From IMG/VR virus record IMGVR_UViG_2713896777_000025: a stretch of DNA of 4,352 nucleotides. One strand, 5' to 3'. Both the position numbers and the translations under genes were made by a program. The notes below the pieces were generated by a model. The model was not told where the DNA came from. It did not search any database and worked only from the letters and a program-made list of their open reading frames with translations. Positions 1,044 to 4,352 of the stretch are shown one piece after another. Position 1 is the first letter of the stretch. Each line of letters starts with the position of its first letter. Source of the stretch: a virus (lineage: Duplodnaviria; Heunggongvirae; Uroviricota; Caudoviricetes).

Positions 1044-1257
1044 AACCCCCCCCATTTTCACAATCAGCAACAAGAATATTTTTAGCGTCATTCAGCGACC
1101 GCGTTGCGATGTATCGGATACATTCCAGGGCGAACTGTGTCCGGTCTTTCTGTTCTTCTCCCTGCGCAAGCTCTGCAGTGCATTCAATATCGATAAGCGC
1201 GTGCATCAGCGTAGTGAGCGCGGCGGCTGCTGCGTCCGGTGTGGTTTTATTGCACAT
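1036..1257 (-). CDS. Hypothetical small acidic protein (73 aa, MCNKTTPDAAAAALTTLMHALIDIECTAELAQGEEQKDRTQFALECIRYIATRSLNDAKNILVADCENGGGYA)
   Basis: Same frame as ORF-track ORF 1036..1299; start placed at ATG 1257-1255, which has a consensus SD AGGAGG (revcomp of 1264-1269) 6 nt upstream and overlaps the last codons of the preceding gene. Stop TGA at 1038-1036. Confidence 0.6.
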   Translation of the reverse strand: MCNKTTPDAAAAALTTLMHALIDIECTAELAQGEEQKDRTQFALECIRYIATRSLNDAKNILVADCENGGGYA

Positions 1258-1807
1258 GGCACACCTCCTGACGAATACGGGCGGCGAATACAGCAACACA
1301 ACCGGACGGGCAACGGCTACGCGCTTCGCGTTCCGTCCAGGCGGTTACGTGGATGATTTGATGTTCTGACGCGCCAAAGATGATAAAGCGCCAGAGAAAG
1401 GCGGTTTGAGAATGTACAAGGGTAGGGATAGTAGCCATGTTGGCAGCCTCCTCAGTGTGGTTAAGATAACCGCCACCGGAAACGCCAATTTCGCTGGTGG
1501 CGGACTGTACAGGGTTGGCGTAACCGGACACTGAAGAAACCGGCGCGGATTGCTCCGCCCCCGTACAGCCCACCATTGATAAGGTGTGACTATGCGGCAC
1601 AAAAAAACACGCGGGGCGCGTGTTATGCGCTTCAGTTTTGCCCAGGACGCCAATCCCGGCACCCGTTTTATGAGGTGCGCGGGAATCATAGCTATTTTCG
1701 ACACTGGCGATCAACTGGTTTTTTTCTCCGATATTCAGGGCCAGAAAACGCCACACAAAGGCCGTTTGTGTGTGTACAAGGTGTGGTATATGATTTACGG
1801 CAACCAT
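1247..1807 (-). CDS. Small protein (186 aa) with an internal tandem duplication of an N-terminal module (HIPHLVHTQTAFVWRFLALNIGEKNQLI / TIPTLVHSQTAFLWRFIIFGASEHQII); possibly related to Icd-like proteins of P4-type elements (unverified)
   Basis: ATG at 1807-1805 with SD AGGAG (revcomp of 1813-1817) 5 nt upstream; frame open to TAA at 1249-1247. A second in-frame ATG at 1438-1436 has its own strong SD GAGGAGG (revcomp of 1447-1453, 8-nt spacer) and begins a 63-aa copy of the module. The longer ORF-track call 1247..2323 is rejected because it reads antisense through the RHH gene and the operator region. Confidence 0.55.
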   Translation of the reverse strand: MVAVNHIPHLVHTQTAFVWRFLALNIGEKNQLIASVENSYDSRAPHKTGAGIGVLGKTEAHNTRPACFFVPHSHTLSMVGCTGAEQSAPVSSVSGYANPVQSATSEIGVSGGGYLNHTEEAANMATIPTLVHSQTAFLWRFIIFGASEHQIIHVTAWTEREARSRCPSGCVAVFAARIRQEVCHVQ

Positions 1808-1836
1808 AACGGCTCCTAGTTTACGTTGTTGGTTAG

Positions 1837-1878
1837 ACGCCCCGTATGTGTTCCCAGCACTGCGGGGCGTTGATTTTT
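1837..1878 (+). terminator. Hairpin followed by a T-tract (terminator-like on the plus strand; also a structured element in the 5' leader of the minus-strand operon)
   Basis: ACGCCCCG (1838-1845) pairs with CGGGGCGT (1863-1870), with an inner GTG/CAC pair, followed by TGATTTTTGT (1871-1880). On the minus strand the same stem is not followed by a U-tract. Confidence 0.3.
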
Positions 1879-1897
1879 GTGTAATGGCAAGTACAAT
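1870..1897 (+). promoter_or_regulatory. Candidate sigma70 promoter for the RHH gene (TTGATT - 16 bp - TACAAT)
   Basis: -35 TTGATT at 1870-1875 and -10 TACAAT at 1892-1897; predicted TSS near 1904, about 34 nt before the RHH ATG. The -10 overlaps palindrome 1. Confidence 0.4.
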
Positions 1898-1909
1898 GGT
1901 AATTACCAT
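1896..1909. promoter_or_regulatory. Perfect 14-bp palindrome ATGGTAATTACCAT (candidate operator 1)
   Basis: Read directly from the sequence; it is its own reverse complement. Overlaps the plus-strand -10 and the predicted TSS of the minus-strand promoter. Confidence 0.5.
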
Positions 1910-1915
1910 GTAGGT

Positions 1916-1944
1916 ATAGTAATGAAGGGTAATTACCATGTCAA
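1916..1944 (-). promoter_or_regulatory. Candidate sigma70 promoter for the minus-strand small-gene operon (TTGACA - 17 bp - TACTAT)
   Basis: On the minus strand, a consensus -35 TTGACA (revcomp of 1939-1944, overlapping the RHH start codon), an exact 17-bp spacer that contains palindrome 2, and -10 TACTAT (revcomp of 1916-1921). Predicted TSS near 1908, about 100 nt before ATG 1807. Confidence 0.45.
1928..1937. promoter_or_regulatory. Perfect 10-bp palindrome GGTAATTACC (candidate operator 2)
   Basis: Same core as palindrome 1, 30 bp centre-to-centre. Sits in the -35/-10 spacer of the minus-strand promoter and covers the RBS of the RHH gene. Confidence 0.5.
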
Positions 1945-2111
1945 CACCATTAGAAAAACGTTCGCCTCCATACCAAATGCGATTACCGGAAGACTTCAGA
2001 GCGCAGCTAGAAGAAGCAGCTAAGGCCGATGGCGACACATCTTTAGCCACTTGGATTAAACGCGTTCTCCGCAAAGAATTACAGCAACGCGGCATAGAAC
2101 CCAAAGGATAA
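1938..2111 (+). CDS. Arc/Mnt/MetJ-family ribbon-helix-helix DNA-binding protein (57 aa, MSTPLEKRSPPYQMRLPEDFRAQLEEAAKADGDTSLATWIKRVLRKELQQRGIEPKG)
   Basis: Not in the ORF track (below its size cut-off); translated by hand. SD AAGGG at 1925-1929, 8 nt before ATG 1938; stop TAA at 2109-2111. The protein has the Arc/Mnt RHH pattern: beta-strand YQMRLP, helix A EDFRAQLEEAAKADG, turn, helix B SLATWIKRVLRKELQQ. Confidence 0.8.
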   Translation: MSTPLEKRSPPYQMRLPEDFRAQLEEAAKADGDTSLATWIKRVLRKELQQRGIEPKG

Positions 2112-2168
2112 AAACTATCAGCGCCGTGGTGTGAGGTATTACGGCGCATTGCTATGCAGGACAACACA

Positions 2169-2327
2169 ATGACCGATAAAGAATTGACCAAAACATNNNN
2201 NNNNNNNNNNNNNNNNNNNNNNNNNNNNNNNNNNNNNNNNNNNNNNNNNNNNNNNCTGATTGCATTGCCCACCAGCCTGATAGCGGCTATCATCCCCGTG
2301 CTTATGTTTGGGATCACATACACATAA
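2169..2327 (+). CDS. Probable small single-TM membrane peptide (~52 aa; MTDKELTKT...[about 20 masked codons]...LIALPTSLIAAIIPVLMFGITYT)
   Basis: ATG 2169 with AGGA (2158-2161) 7 nt upstream; an alternative ATG is at 2154. The frame stays in register across the 59-nt N-run and ends at TAA 2325-2327, 27 nt before a strong plus-strand terminator. The C-terminus is a 20-residue hydrophobic stretch. Uncertain because about 40% of the ORF is masked. Confidence 0.35.
   Translation: MTDKELTKTXXXXXXXXXXXXXXXXXXXXLIALPTSLIAAIIPVLMFGITYT
2197..2255. other. Run of 59 N (masked or unresolved bases)
   Basis: Directly visible. Falls inside the candidate small membrane-peptide ORF. Confidence 1.
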
Positions 2328-2353
2328 GGCGCAGCGGGTTAATTGTTCAGAAA

Positions 2354-2381
2354 GGCGGCTCCATATCGGGGCCGCTTTTTT
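2354..2381 (+). terminator. Rho-independent terminator for the plus-strand RHH cassette (possibly weakly bidirectional, also ending alpA)
   Basis: GCGGCTCC (2355-2362) pairs with GGGGCCGC (2368-2375), 8 bp with one G-U, loop ATATC, followed by TTTTTT (2376-2381). On the minus strand the hairpin is followed only by CTTTCTG. Confidence 0.6.
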
Positions 2382-2407
2382 CGTGTTTGTCATATCTGTG
2401 ATACCCG

Positions 2408-2614
2408 TTAAGCAGCCGTTCCGCGTGCTTCCTCTTCGCGTTCTTTCTGCCAGGACAACACATCATCCTCATACCATCCGCGACGGCGTAAACCAACGCG
2501 AAAACCCTGCGGAAATTCTCCGGCGTTGATCATGCTTTGCAGCGTGCTGTCTGCCTTGATGTGGATAATTTTTTTTACTTCCTGGCGAAAGATAATTTTT
2601 CTGATTGCTTCCAT
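2408..2614 (-). CDS. alpA: AlpA/Vis-family phage transcriptional regulator (68 aa)
   Basis: ORF-track ORF. The sequence RQEVKKIIHIKADSTLQSMINAGEFPQGFRVGLRRRGWYEDDVLSWQ matches the AlpA family pattern (HTH, then G-x-FP-x-P/G-x-K/R-hG-x-R-x-x-GW, then W). SD AAGGT lies 8 nt upstream of ATG 2614. It sits downstream of int on the same strand, as in CP4-57-type islands. Confidence 0.85.
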   Translation of the reverse strand: MEAIRKIIFRQEVKKIIHIKADSTLQSMINAGEFPQGFRVGLRRRGWYEDDVLSWQKEREEEARGTAA

Positions 2615-2690
2615 CGTGATTTACCTTGTGAATCCGGTGTATTCCGGTGACAAATACGGTAAATCATCGGATATGGGTAAAAACAGTTCC

Positions 2691-2720
2691 CACCGTTTTT
2701 AAACGGTATACACCGTTTTT
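2691..2720. promoter_or_regulatory. Repeat cluster upstream of alpA: direct repeat CACCGTTTTT (x2) flanking a 16-bp inverted repeat ACCGTTT-TT-AAACGGT
   Basis: CACCGTTTTT at 2691-2700 and 2711-2720; ACCGTTT (2692-2698) and AAACGGT (2701-2707) are exact reverse complements. A related TACGGTAAA lies at 2655-2663. All fall in the roughly 165-bp region between the upstream terminator and the alpA start. Confidence 0.3.
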
Positions 2721-2747
2721 TATATTGATGATTTGAAATGGAATTAT

Positions 2748-2770
2748 AAAAAAAGCGGCATTTCTGCCGC
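2748..2770 (-). terminator. Rho-independent terminator ending the int / small-ORF transcript
   Basis: On the minus strand: stem GCGGCA, GAAA tetraloop, stem TGCCGC (plus coordinates 2755-2770), followed by TTTTTTT (revcomp of the A-run 2748-2754). Starts 11 nt after the TAA stop at 2784-2782. Confidence 0.65.
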
Positions 2771-2781
2771 TTCCAGGATTG

Positions 2782-3033
2782 TTACCGCCATTTTTTGGGC
2801 CTGCCTCCGATCTTCATAGATGCCGGACGTACGACCTTATCAATACTTACCGCCAGATTTCTGGAAGCGCCACGGGATACCAGAAAATCTACTACCTGTT
2901 TTTTTGATGGGGCCGTCGTTCTGTCCTCCGGATCGTAGGTTGACCAAAATTCATGCTGAACCATCAGGGCCAGTTGCAGCCCGTCGCAATTGCATCTGAT
3001 ATTTTTTTGCATCTTAACGGTTTCATGTTTCAC
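2782..3033 (-). CDS. Hypothetical small protein with a basic C-terminus (...KIGGRPKKWR); 83 aa from GTG 3033 or 76 aa from ATG 3012
   Basis: ORF-track ORF; its first codon is GTG, and the first ATG is at 3012-3010. Neither start has a convincing SD. Support comes from position (between int and alpA, same strand) and the canonical terminator immediately downstream. Function not recognised. Confidence 0.45.
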   Translation of the reverse strand: MKHETVKMQKNIRCNCDGLQLALMVQHEFWSTYDPEDRTTAPSKKQVVDFLVSRGASRNLAVSIDKVVRPASMKIGGRPKKWR

Positions 3034-3110
3034 GGCCTTGTCGTTAAATTTGATGCAATTATACGACGGTTTTACATGGTTTTCGTAGTTTTTACTGGTT
3101 TTCTGTACAG

Positions 3111-4352
3111 CTACACGGCTCGGATACCCCTTTTACCACTGGCGAGGGTTACGCCCGTCGCCGCAGCCTCGACAAATTCGCCCCACCAGCGCATCAGCAC
3201 GATGCGTTTTTCTATGTAGTTGCTCCGGTTGTATGCCCGTCTAACTTCGTTGGTGTCGACGTGGGCAAGTGCCGCCTCTATTACGTCCGGCTCGAATCCT
3301 TCCTCGTTCGCTGCTGTGCTGAATATGGCGCGTAATCCATGAGACACCAGCACGCCAGCGAATCCCATACGCCGCAATGCTGCGTTAGCTGTCTGGCTGT
3401 TCATCGGCTGCTGTGGGTCTTTCAGACTTGGGAAAACGTAATTGCGGTGGTGGCTGATTGGTTTCATGGCCTCCAGCACCGCCATAGCCTGACCGGAAAG
3501 CGGGATAACGTGATCCCTGCGCATCTTCATGCGTCCGGCAGGTATCGTCCATTGCTTCGCGTCCAGGTTGATTTCATCCCACCGCGTTGATGACGCTTCG
3601 GCGGGACGGGTTACGGTCAGTAACTGCCATTCAATCAGTAATCTGGTCTGCCGTTCTGTTGCCGATACTGATAAAGCCTGCATAAGCTCGGGCAGCTGTT
3701 CGGGGCGGATTGTTGGCATATGTTTTTTTACAGGTGAGGGAAACGCCTTACGCACATTCATAGCCGGATTGGCATCAATCAGCCCACTGTTGGCGGCGTA
3801 ATCCATTACCTCATTAACGCGCTGTAAAACCCGCTTGAGTGTTTCCAGGTTGCCGCGCTCCTTGATGGGGGTAAGCACTTCAACGAACCTTCGGGCGGTG
3901 AGGGTATCTATTGGCGTGTTGCCGATGAACGGGAATACATATTTATCCAGCGAACGCCAGATGTCTTTAATCGTGTTGGGGGCCAGATTCTGGCTGATTT
4001 TCACCTGGTACCATGCCGCCGCCACATTTTCGAACGTGTTCCCTTGTCTTCGGGCCTCTGTCTCTCTTTTTTGCCTCTCGTGGTCCTGCGGGTCAGTTCC
4101 GGCACTGATTAACGTCCTGTACTCGCTACGGCGTTTTCTGGCATCAGCCAGGGAAACATCTTCAAGCGATCCAAAACTCAGCAATATTCTTTTTTTGTCC
4201 GATGGTCGGTAGTAGGAAAATCTCCAGAGTTTTGATCCAGACGGTTTGACCAGGAGAAAAAGCCCTCCGCCGTCCTGCAGGGTGTACTCCTTTTGCGCTG
4301 GTCTGGCTGCTTTGATCTGCACTGTGGTTAATGGGTGTGTTTTTCTCGCCAT
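3111..4352 (-). CDS. int: P4-family tyrosine recombinase / phage integrase (413 aa, complete; ATG is the last 3 bases of the window)
   Basis: ORF-track ORF. N-terminal arm-binding-type region (LTTVQIKAARPAQKEYTLQDGGGLFLLVKPSGSKLWRFSYY) and a C-terminal catalytic domain with the conserved residues in order: R (LTVTRPAE), K (GRMKMRR), H-x-x-R (SHGLRAIF), H (ALAHVD), Y (RAYNRSNY). Stop TAG at 3113-3111. Confidence 0.95.
   Translation of the reverse strand: MARKTHPLTTVQIKAARPAQKEYTLQDGGGLFLLVKPSGSKLWRFSYYRPSDKKRILLSFGSLEDVSLADARKRRSEYRTLISAGTDPQDHERQKRETEARRQGNTFENVAAAWYQVKISQNLAPNTIKDIWRSLDKYVFPFIGNTPIDTLTARRFVEVLTPIKERGNLETLKRVLQRVNEVMDYAANSGLIDANPAMNVRKAFPSPVKKHMPTIRPEQLPELMQALSVSATERQTRLLIEWQLLTVTRPAEASSTRWDEINLDAKQWTIPAGRMKMRRDHVIPLSGQAMAVLEAMKPISHHRNYVFPSLKDPQQPMNSQTANAALRRMGFAGVLVSHGLRAIFSTAANEEGFEPDVIEAALAHVDTNEVRRAYNRSNYIEKRIVLMRWWGEFVEAAATGVTLASGKRGIRAV

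Follow-up and report, generated by a model that had tools for sequence, protein, structure and literature searches.

The immI repressors of phage P22, Arc and Mnt, are ribbon-helix-helix (RHH) proteins of about 53 to 57 amino acids that regulate their own synthesis and whose operator lies between the -35 and -10 elements of the repressed promoter, overlapping opposed promoters. A comparable arrangement occurs in a stretch of 4,352 nucleotides (the window) from the Caudoviricetes record IMGVR_UViG_2713896777_000025, which is the regulatory end of an Escherichia coli phage satellite of the phage-inducible chromosomal island (PICI) or capsid-forming PICI (cf-PICI) type. The window carries a plus-strand cassette of two open reading frames (ORFs), a gene for an Arc-like RHH protein followed by ORF2. 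The RHH gene probably encodes a repressor that keeps the satellite island silent, and the cassette is best read as an immunity repressor of the Arc-like kind plus a passenger gene, and not as a toxin-antitoxin or abortive-infection pair. Whether Gram-negative PICIs possess a global repressor was left unclear in their founding description, which called the contrast with Gram-positive PICIs a mystery (PMC6092414). The literature accessible here yielded no paper on a repressor of the RHH or Arc type from PICIs or P4-like satellites; papers outside it may exist.

The window protein resembles Arc and Mnt in its very small size, in a predicted operator within a promoter spacer, in its match to an Arc-like PHROG family and in having Arc among its fold matches. 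It differs from them in not being a significant member of the Pfam Arc family, in its two 14-bp palindromes with centers 30 bp apart in place of one 21-bp operator, in its proposed target, which would be a satellite replication operon and not an antirepressor gene, and in the nesting of its gene antisense within a long ORF.

Phage P4 immunity (PLE/PLL, CI RNA, seqA/seqC) offers a second parallel. The leader of the leftward operon in the window contains a C4/CI-type RNA and an isrK/seqA-like element, a Vis/AlpA-type gene lies upstream, and the 63-aa Icd-like product forms the end of a longer frame whose start is upstream of the early promoter, as in the eta/kil arrangement of P4. P4 is not known to have a protein repressor between vis and PLE, whereas in the window about 750 nt with two opposite-strand genes are embedded in the long ORF; the window element also has its own capsid and terS genes, with no psu, sid or delta annotated. 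The termination mechanism of P4 CI/seqA/seqC is summarized in PMC4825925. As in the c4-icd-ant system of P1 and P7, a C4 antisense RNA is followed by an icd-like ORF and translation would be the controlled step, but in the window replication genes and no ant gene lie downstream, and an additional putative protein repressor sits at the promoter.

The Stl proteins of Gram-positive PICIs are larger helix-turn-helix (HTH) proteins that are relieved by binding helper-phage proteins. As with Stl and Rpr of these islands (the Staphylococcus aureus pathogenicity islands, SaPIs), the putative repressor gene of the window is transcribed away from the excision-replication operon, on the integrase side, with accessory genes tolerated beside it (PMC6092414). 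Unlike Stl, the window protein is a 57-aa RHH type and would act alongside an RNA lock; induction of Gram-negative PICIs is reported to proceed through AlpA (PMC6092414). By analogy with these systems, the locus would work like a small RHH immunity repressor of the P22 Arc kind, set in a P4/P1-type RNA-immunity region at the position of Stl or Rpr.

The RHH gene and its predicted operators

The initial annotation had recognized an RHH-type ORF as the first gene of the cassette, and a 57-aa protein with an Arc-like profile match and an AlphaFold2 (AF2) model is indeed found there (Table 1). The gene is unannotated in the inspected RefSeq copies with the exact sequence, and a diverged copy in E. 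coli E2855 (locus L082) is annotated as hypothetical. Its homologues form 93 protein clusters, nearly all of about 57 aa and 60-98% identical, from dozens of gammaproteobacterial genera (Enterobacterales, Pasteurellaceae, Aeromonas, Oceanimonas and Gilliamella). Mean identity among 27 distinct 57-codon genes is 74% for nucleotides and 80% for amino acids, the codon-position entropy is 27/15/67, and pN/pS is 0.20. These values indicate that the gene is real and under purifying selection.

The protein matches the PHROG 228 Arc-like repressor family at E=1.5e-6 and reaches 18.7 bits against NCBIfam YlcI_YnfO_N, for which the cut-off is 30. Its AF2 monomer has an extended N-terminal arm (residues 1-17) and two helices (18-31 and 36-50); the strand would form only in the dimer. 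A DGDTS turn is invariant or nearly so in the family, and the beta-alpha-alpha order expected of RHH proteins is present. The top Foldseek matches of the model are almost all RHH DNA-binders (AmrZ, CopA, Arc, ParG, CopG, NikR and ParD), every one of them at E>1 and with TM-scores of 0.4-0.6. The best match to a solved structure is AmrZ, an Arc-like RHH protein of Pseudomonas (PDB 3qoq; 37% identity over 38 residues, root-mean-square deviation 1.2 Å; not statistically significant), which is also the only RHH protein among the phmmer matches in the PDB. Unlike the window protein, AmrZ is a chromosomal global regulator, and its biological role is unrelated. The assignment of the first protein of the cassette as an Arc-like RHH protein is supported, and DNA binding is predicted.

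The proposal that the cassette has its own promoter is borne out by a sigma-70-like site, P_R, whose -10 element abuts the first of two predicted operators, O1. A leftward early promoter, P_L, is predicted face to face with P_R, and the pair is straddled by O1 and O2; O2 falls between the ribosome-binding site and the start codon of the RHH gene. A survey was made of 79 species-level RHH loci from different species (77 scorable for these elements). In most of them the proximal palindrome is centered at -5 and the distal one at -35 to -39 from the start codon, and a -10-like hexamer beside O1 recurs as TGTAAT, TAAAAT, TACAAT or TATAAT. The exact operator core has only two copies in the 12.7-kb locus that contains the window (L001), and there are no further copies in the island; two one-mismatch matches fall in the host gene yejM.

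The -35 element of P_L is the reverse complement of RHH codons 1-3. It reads exactly TTGACA in 72/77 loci, and Ser2 of the RHH protein is always encoded by TCA, out of six serine codons. Such constraint acts at the level of DNA and indicates that the leftward promoter is functional; a good leftward -10 element lies at a spacing of 16-18 nt in 50 of the loci. With O2 in the spacer of P_L and O1 over both start sites, the RHH protein would repress the leftward operon and autoregulate.

Operator half-sites and the predicted recognition strand of the protein vary together. Among these loci, which share ancestry, the strand class RSP..QMR[LM] is paired with the operator core GGTAATTACC in 22/28, KTDQYQ[IL]RL with TGTAATTACA in 16/17, RSPQFPMRL with GGTATATACC in 7/8, and GNPPFQFRL with TGTGTAATTACACA-type operators in most of 15. 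The classes, together with the YlcI/YnfO variants described below, look like exchangeable immunity specificities.

Beside these elements, nearly all 79 loci share a conserved GC-rich stem-loop, which in the window is at 1838-1869 (CGCCCCG...CGGGGCG). In minus-strand orientation it falls within the 5' leader of P_L transcripts. Read on the plus strand, it precedes a T-run that also serves as the -35 region of P_R, for which reason it looks like a plus-strand terminator or insulator.

ORF2 and the slot behind the RHH gene

The second gene had been described as a 52-aa ORF (2169..2327) with a single hydrophobic helix, read across a run of 59 N at 2197..2255. In identical genomes this run is 142 nt long (record span 734 against 651), which shifts the frame by 2, so that recovery of the masked sequence exposed a frame problem. 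A second run, of 67 N at 622-688, is about 40 nt shorter than the sequence that it replaces in an identical genome (about 107 nt). The masks alter length, and reading frames are therefore not to be carried across N runs. The plus-strand start at ATG 2169 stands. The extent does not: ORF2 encodes 57 aa, MTDKELTKTLSPARKRRRRKIEHESERFAPCAFALEQFLKEYREKRSLQVWQRTEPD, and its stop codon is visible just beyond the mask.

The ORF2 protein has a basic N-terminal helix (RKRRRRK) and a conserved core, ERFAPCAFALEQFLKEY, which is invariant among eight diverged copies; dN/dS among these copies is 0.13-0.60. The AF2 model consists of two helices, and the prediction is all-helical. ORF2 matches the uncharacterized PHROG 21027 (E=1.6e-15) and is annotated as an identical protein in CFT073. 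No match was found in Pfam, NCBIfam, PADLOC or a PDB sequence search, nor any neighbor in two fold searches, and a tblastn search of 50,697 phage records found nothing despite the PHROG match. ORF2 is a soluble, basic, helical protein and is best described as a repressor-linked passenger. Its arginine-rich helix and its fixed association with a hairpin and a regulatory zone lead us to guess, with low confidence, at a nucleic-acid-binding modulator of the switch and not a toxin.

The hairpin in question, an intergenic stem-loop just 5' of the ORF2 ribosome-binding site, is present in all ORF2-bearing loci with only wobble-type changes, for Arc-like and YlcI/YnfO repressors alike. Since it lacks a U-tract, it does not qualify as an intrinsic terminator, and it could serve in processing, in stability or in protein binding. 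Binding of the arginine-rich ORF2 protein to this hairpin, or a Rop-like action on the antisense RNAs, is speculation. All nine ORF2-bearing loci keep the motif ATTGCCCACCAGCC (2264-2277) directly after the ORF2 stop codon, L082 and L086 with a single-base change each, and they do so despite differences in the remaining 3' untranslated region (UTR). The strong terminator noted earlier is present, and a terminator lies 3' of ORF2 in every variant.

The initial annotation had paired the RHH protein with a membrane-acting effector, that is a toxin, abortive-infection or exclusion peptide. This reading followed from the assumption that the mask preserves length. A hydrophobic stretch, LIALPTSLIAAIIPVLMFGITYT, can be read at 2256..2327, and 47-53-aa signal-peptide- or lipoprotein-like ORFs (such as MKKIIILAAVLIVAAFLLKSC...) do begin +3 nt after the RHH gene in Edaphovirga (L061), Raoultella (L063) and Erwinia amylovora (L066), at about 4153-4315 in each locus. 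RHH-plus-membrane-peptide units thus exist in the family, but in other elements. In the window, replacing the 59 N by the true 142 nt puts the hydrophobic stretch out of frame with ORF2: it belongs to a different frame of the 3' UTR, and the helix is a mask artefact. By itself it would be a 20-codon ORF with a TTG start and no ribosome-binding site. Nor is it conserved among the nine ORF2 loci compared, its stop being lost in L060, indels interrupting it in L082 and other sequence replacing it in six more. The unmasked sequence and the non-conserved tail led to the rejection of the membrane-peptide explanation, to which we give hardly any credence.

Nor are the two genes inherited together. 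ORF2 is absent beside the RHH gene in 77/78 species-representative loci from other genomes that could be scored for it, the sole exception being a Shigella, and within E. coli ORF2 DNA occurs in 1505 genomes against 589 for this RHH gene. ORF2 is confined to Escherichia and Shigella, where it usually lies 3' of a YlcI/YnfO-type gene. The RHH gene and ORF2 are therefore not obligate partners, and the pair is not a unit of inheritance. An RHH gene without a linked peptide in related elements, a peptide ORF that is not conserved and a frame problem inside the mask had been named in the initial annotation as grounds for rejecting the pairing, and all three are observed.

These counts also bear on whether ORF2 could be a non-membrane toxin that the RHH protein neutralizes and co-represses in the manner of a type II toxin-antitoxin pair. 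The order of the genes (RHH first, then a small partner), their common promoter and terminator, and the many RHH antitoxins among the fold matches would all fit. Against this stand the absence of ORF2 from nearly all RHH loci, its excess in genome counts and its presence behind YlcI/YnfO-type genes elsewhere. In addition, helix 2 of the RHH protein is followed only by a short RGIEPKG tail (7-9 residues), the same whatever gene follows, and no partner-binding extension was found beyond the DNA-binding domain in the 57 aa; ORF2 has no toxin match in Pfam or PADLOC; and the operators are located on the promoter of the early operon. A toxin-antitoxin pair is quite unlikely here. The toxin-antitoxin or defense interpretation was dropped when database and fold searches were empty for ORF2 and the co-occurrence tests failed.

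What does remain constant is the position of the RHH gene, which in all 79 loci lies between the leftward icd/DUF4222/RepA operon and the convergent integrase gene, at about 320 to 3800 nt from the latter. Outside Escherichia, the slot behind it is occupied by a second RHH gene, MazE-like, DUF1543 or SWIM-finger proteins, a DUF523 enzyme, membrane proteins or small lipoprotein-like peptides. Cargo is absent in Pectobacterium, where the integrase gene comes next, and in Pmp8, a packaged cf-PICI of Pasteurella whose sole plus-strand gene is the RHH gene, with nothing behind it. The proposal of a master repressor with a passenger peptide comes close to the reading favored here, except that the passenger is the 57-aa basic ORF2 and not a membrane peptide.

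In most E. coli PICIs, including the CFT073 island, genes of the YlcI/YnfO type (NCBIfam NF041551) hold the same position and orientation, with the same hairpin and ORF2 behind them and with their own repeated palindromes beside TTGACA or TTGACG. The similarity of these proteins to the window RHH protein in sequence and profile is weak and in register (hhalign E=1.2e-4 against the RHH profile). The window protein differs in falling under the family cut-off, in its operator sequence and in its start codon, which lies on the -35 element of P_L. The island of CFT073 at roxA/phoQ (L091, 9243-9653), probably EcCICFT073, the model PICI, has two genes on the strand opposite to all others: one of the YlcI/YnfO type and an ORF2 that is 100% identical to that of the window. 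No published functional work was found on this YlcI/YnfO-type gene or ORF2. In L082, the tRNA-Pro site that the window element also occupies holds a tandem (2676-3935): first a YlcI/YnfO-type gene with an ORF2 paralogue of 75 aa, then an Arc-type RHH gene with a 67-aa ORF2 homologue. The tandem resembles either a series of two immunity modules or a recombinant.

RNA immunity, the long antisense frame and the island

Table 1. Features of the window around the RHH cassette.
Feature	Position	Strand	Description
Long stop-free frame	1247-2393	-	409 codons, 1230 nt unmasked; ATG at 2393, 15 nt after the alpA stop
C4 antisense (immunity) RNA	1493-1580	-	Rfam RF01695, 77.6 bits (gathering 45)
isrK/seqA-like RNA	1602-1678	-	Own terminator; Rfam RF01394, 66 bits (gathering 50)
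Rightward promoter-like site P_R	1870-1897	+	TTGATT-16-TACAAT, sigma-70-like, for the RHH/ORF2 transcript; -10 at 1892-1897, abutting O1
Distal operator O1 (predicted)	1896-1909		Perfect palindrome ATGGTAATTACCAT; overlaps predicted start sites of both promoters
Leftward early promoter P_L (predicted)	1916-1944	-	TTGACA (1944-1939)-17-TACTAT (ending 1916); 10/12 consensus matches
Proximal operator O2 (predicted)	1926-1939		AGGGTAATTACCAT, core GGTAATTACC at 1928-1937; in P_L spacer
RHH (Arc-like) predicted DNA-binding protein	1938-2111	+	57 aa
Intergenic stem-loop	2121-2147	+	GCGCCGTGGTGTGAGGTATTACGGCGC; just 5' of the ORF2 ribosome-binding site; no U-tract
ORF2	2169-2259	+	57 aa, 174 nt with stop; ATG 2169, TGA 2257-2259; mask 2197-2255 inside
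3' UTR of ORF2	2260-2348	+	Contains the out-of-frame "hydrophobic helix" and motif ATTGCCCACCAGCC
Intrinsic terminator of the cassette	2349-2381	+	14-pair stem, then T-run
AlpA-type HTH regulator/excisionase gene	2408-2614	-	Convergent on the cassette

The C4 and isrK RNAs sit in the leader of the leftward operon, and this combination of CI/C4 with seqA/isrK is that of P4-like satellites; it is P1/P4-type RNA immunity inside a PICI. The Icd-like ORF matches NCBIfam phage_ICD_like at E=1.4e-15, and the Rfam C4 match is accompanied by a weak c4-a1b1 match. A 46-nt direct repeat of 76% identity, at 1385-1430 and 1745-1790, contains two copies of the Icd-like N-terminal motif LVH-S/T-QTAF-x-WRF. 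The two copies flank the isrK and C4 RNAs on each side, in the same frame, and may be paired target regions of the C4 RNA.

On the minus strand, a long frame without a stop lies antisense to ORF2 and the RHH gene, continues across the promoter region, an ash-like segment and the isrK/C4 region, and has the 63-aa Icd-like protein as its final part. Over the 669 nt that lie right of the ash-like start, the probability of such openness is about 2e-4 in composition-matched random sequence, and about 6e-4 as the product of per-segment probabilities given the two encoded proteins. The antisense frame is open in 42/71 distinct RHH genes against 11.4 expected from synonymous resampling, a count reached in 0/200,000 simulations (shared ancestry ignored). 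The antisense translation over the RHH gene is rich in Cys, Ser and Arg and poorly conserved. Amino-acid identity is 0.80 for the RHH sense frame and 0.64 for the open antisense frame, with pN/pS of 0.20 and 0.40, respectively. Selection thus appears to act on the openness of the frame and not on the antisense protein sequence.

The calls of the Prokaryotic Genome Annotation Pipeline (PGAP) on this frame vary between an Icd-like pseudogene and, in L087, a 470-aa coding sequence, which together with the significant openness of the frame could be taken to mean that the plus-strand ORFs are spurious and that the long minus-strand Icd-like ORF is the sole real gene, as RefSeq/PGAP implies. This we regard as highly improbable: at the protein level it is the plus strand that is constrained, the antisense translation shows poor conservation, ORF2 has a dN/dS of 0.13-0.6 and an RHH fold is predicted, and in some genomes RefSeq annotates both plus-strand genes. 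The pseudogene call over the RHH gene is a by-product of the open frame. The long minus frame is instead proposed to be an eta/kil-like read-through ORF. In P4, where kil and eta are nested, Rho-dependent termination at the immunity site is reportedly prevented when the long eta ORF is translated from transcripts of PLL, the upstream promoter.

As had been described, the cassette lies tail-to-tail with an AlpA-type gene and faces the leftward operon. The AlpA-type product matches Pfam Phage_AlpA at E=0.0028, under the curated cut-off, and a PHROG excisionase/regulator family at E=2.5e-6; in RefSeq it is annotated as an HTH regulator. Two repeats of 20 nt, one tandem and direct (AAACAGTTCCCACCGTTTTT / AAACGGTATACACCGTTTTT) and the other inverted, lie upstream of alpA (2635-2720) and are candidate control sites for AlpA or its promoter. 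A minus-strand terminator at 2774-2751 insulates alpA from its upstream gene. This gene, between int and alpA (2782-3033, minus strand), is a mechanical ORF of 83 codons (76 aa as annotated) whose family match is at chance level only; it is an uncharacterized accessory gene of the integration zone.

Matches to the region 1800-2450 occur in more than 1200 E. coli genomes, and more than 20, including O26:H11 strain 11368, are 100% identical to the flanks on both sides of the mask. In strain 11368 the window corresponds to the end nearest tRNA-Pro/yejM of an integrated island whose genes lie on a single strand: integrase, a 76-aa hypothetical protein, the AlpA-type HTH protein, "ash", the Icd-like protein, three small hypothetical proteins, DUF4222, a RepA helicase, more small genes, terS and the major capsid gene. 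The order of int and alpA followed by a co-oriented replication module is seen in the window and also in O157:H7, CFT073 and Pmp8. The element had been called P4-like, a label that the P1/P4-type immunity RNAs make loosely right. In the strict sense it does not apply: the RepA helicase, terS and major capsid genes annotated in L001 fit a cf-PICI, and no psu, sid or delta is annotated in the 12.7 kb of that locus (up to about 6 kb beyond the window). A layout with P4/P1-type immunity RNAs has been described for Gram-negative PICIs (PMC10111431), and for EcCIEDL933 and EcCICFT073 helper-phage-dependent induction and transfer have been demonstrated experimentally in the literature.

A proposed switch and its meaning for Gram-negative PICIs

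We consider it reasonably likely that the cassette is the protein-repressor arm of a lysogeny-type switch in a Gram-negative PICI or cf-PICI satellite. In the quiescent state, P_R would drive the RHH gene and, in Escherichia, ORF2. Dimers of the RHH protein would occupy O1 and O2, shut P_L, which serves the isrK/C4-icd-replication operon, and damp P_R itself, while the C4/isrK RNA would act as a second, RNA-level lock on leaky leftward transcripts. ORF2 would be co-transcribed with the repressor, and its place is a variable cargo position taken by unrelated genes in other genera. AlpA transcription during induction is helper-activated and self-activating (PMC6092414). Starting upstream of alpA, it would run leftward through the cassette, and ribosomes translating the long antisense ORF would keep Rho away and pass through the RNA-immunity region. 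Such read-through would bypass both locks, and convergent transcription would silence the repressor. The anatomy of the sequence and its conservation, the covariation of operator and protein and the coding constraint on both genes are shown; DNA binding, repression, read-through and any part played by ORF2 are inferred.

Several points weigh against a repressor of this kind. The RHH protein reaches only 14.3 bits against Pfam Arc (PF03869; cut-off 20.4), in addition to the Foldseek values given above. No clear palindromes are found in L052, L057, L072 and L076, and a good leftward -10 is absent in 27/77 loci. The covariation counts share ancestry and therefore represent few independent specificity switches, about 4 to 6. 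The C4/isrK RNA immunity might be sufficient by itself. Finally, overexpression of AlpA alone induces EcCICFT073 (PMC6092414), so that a repressor would not be dominant there, which the read-through model would accommodate.

The same induction result, and the varied cargo in the slot behind the RHH gene, would also suit an RHH protein that merely autoregulates a self-contained accessory (moron) cassette, with no role in the life cycle and only an incidental overlap with the leftward promoter. The conservation of TTGACA in codons 1-3 and the fixed TCA serine codon argue otherwise, since they point to selection on the leftward promoter exactly where O2 occupies its spacer; moreover, the RHH gene persists without cargo in Pectobacterium and Pmp8. 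An accessory cassette of this type is accordingly improbable, if less so than the alternatives discussed earlier, and the RHH protein as an immunity repressor is preferred. A wider proposal is tentative, and we would put it somewhat short of an even chance. The RHH proteins and the interchangeable YlcI/YnfO-type proteins would together be an unrecognized protein master repressor of Gram-negative PICIs and cf-PICIs, with a gene nested antisense in a translated eta-like ORF. The switch would set rightward repressor transcription against AlpA-driven leftward transcription and translation, superimposed on C4/isrK immunity, and the slot behind the repressor gene would be a hotspot for quiescent-state cargo, with ORF2 as its Escherichia occupant.

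The specific claim of the initial annotation, a repressor-type protein with a membrane peptide, is thus largely refuted, and its history serves as a warning that masked runs in windows of this kind do not keep length. The locus also presents an annotation problem, in that many RefSeq genomes carry a minus-strand "Icd-like" pseudogene call in place of the RHH gene. If the operator and recognition-strand classes are immunity specificities, they bear on predicting which satellites co-reside or cross-regulate. A conserved, mostly unannotated RHH gene with predicted operators on the early promoter is a well-placed candidate for a global repressor; it is present in an O157:H7 cf-PICI and, through its YlcI/YnfO counterpart, in the CFT073 island. 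With such a candidate, the question of whether Gram-negative PICIs have a global repressor becomes testable.

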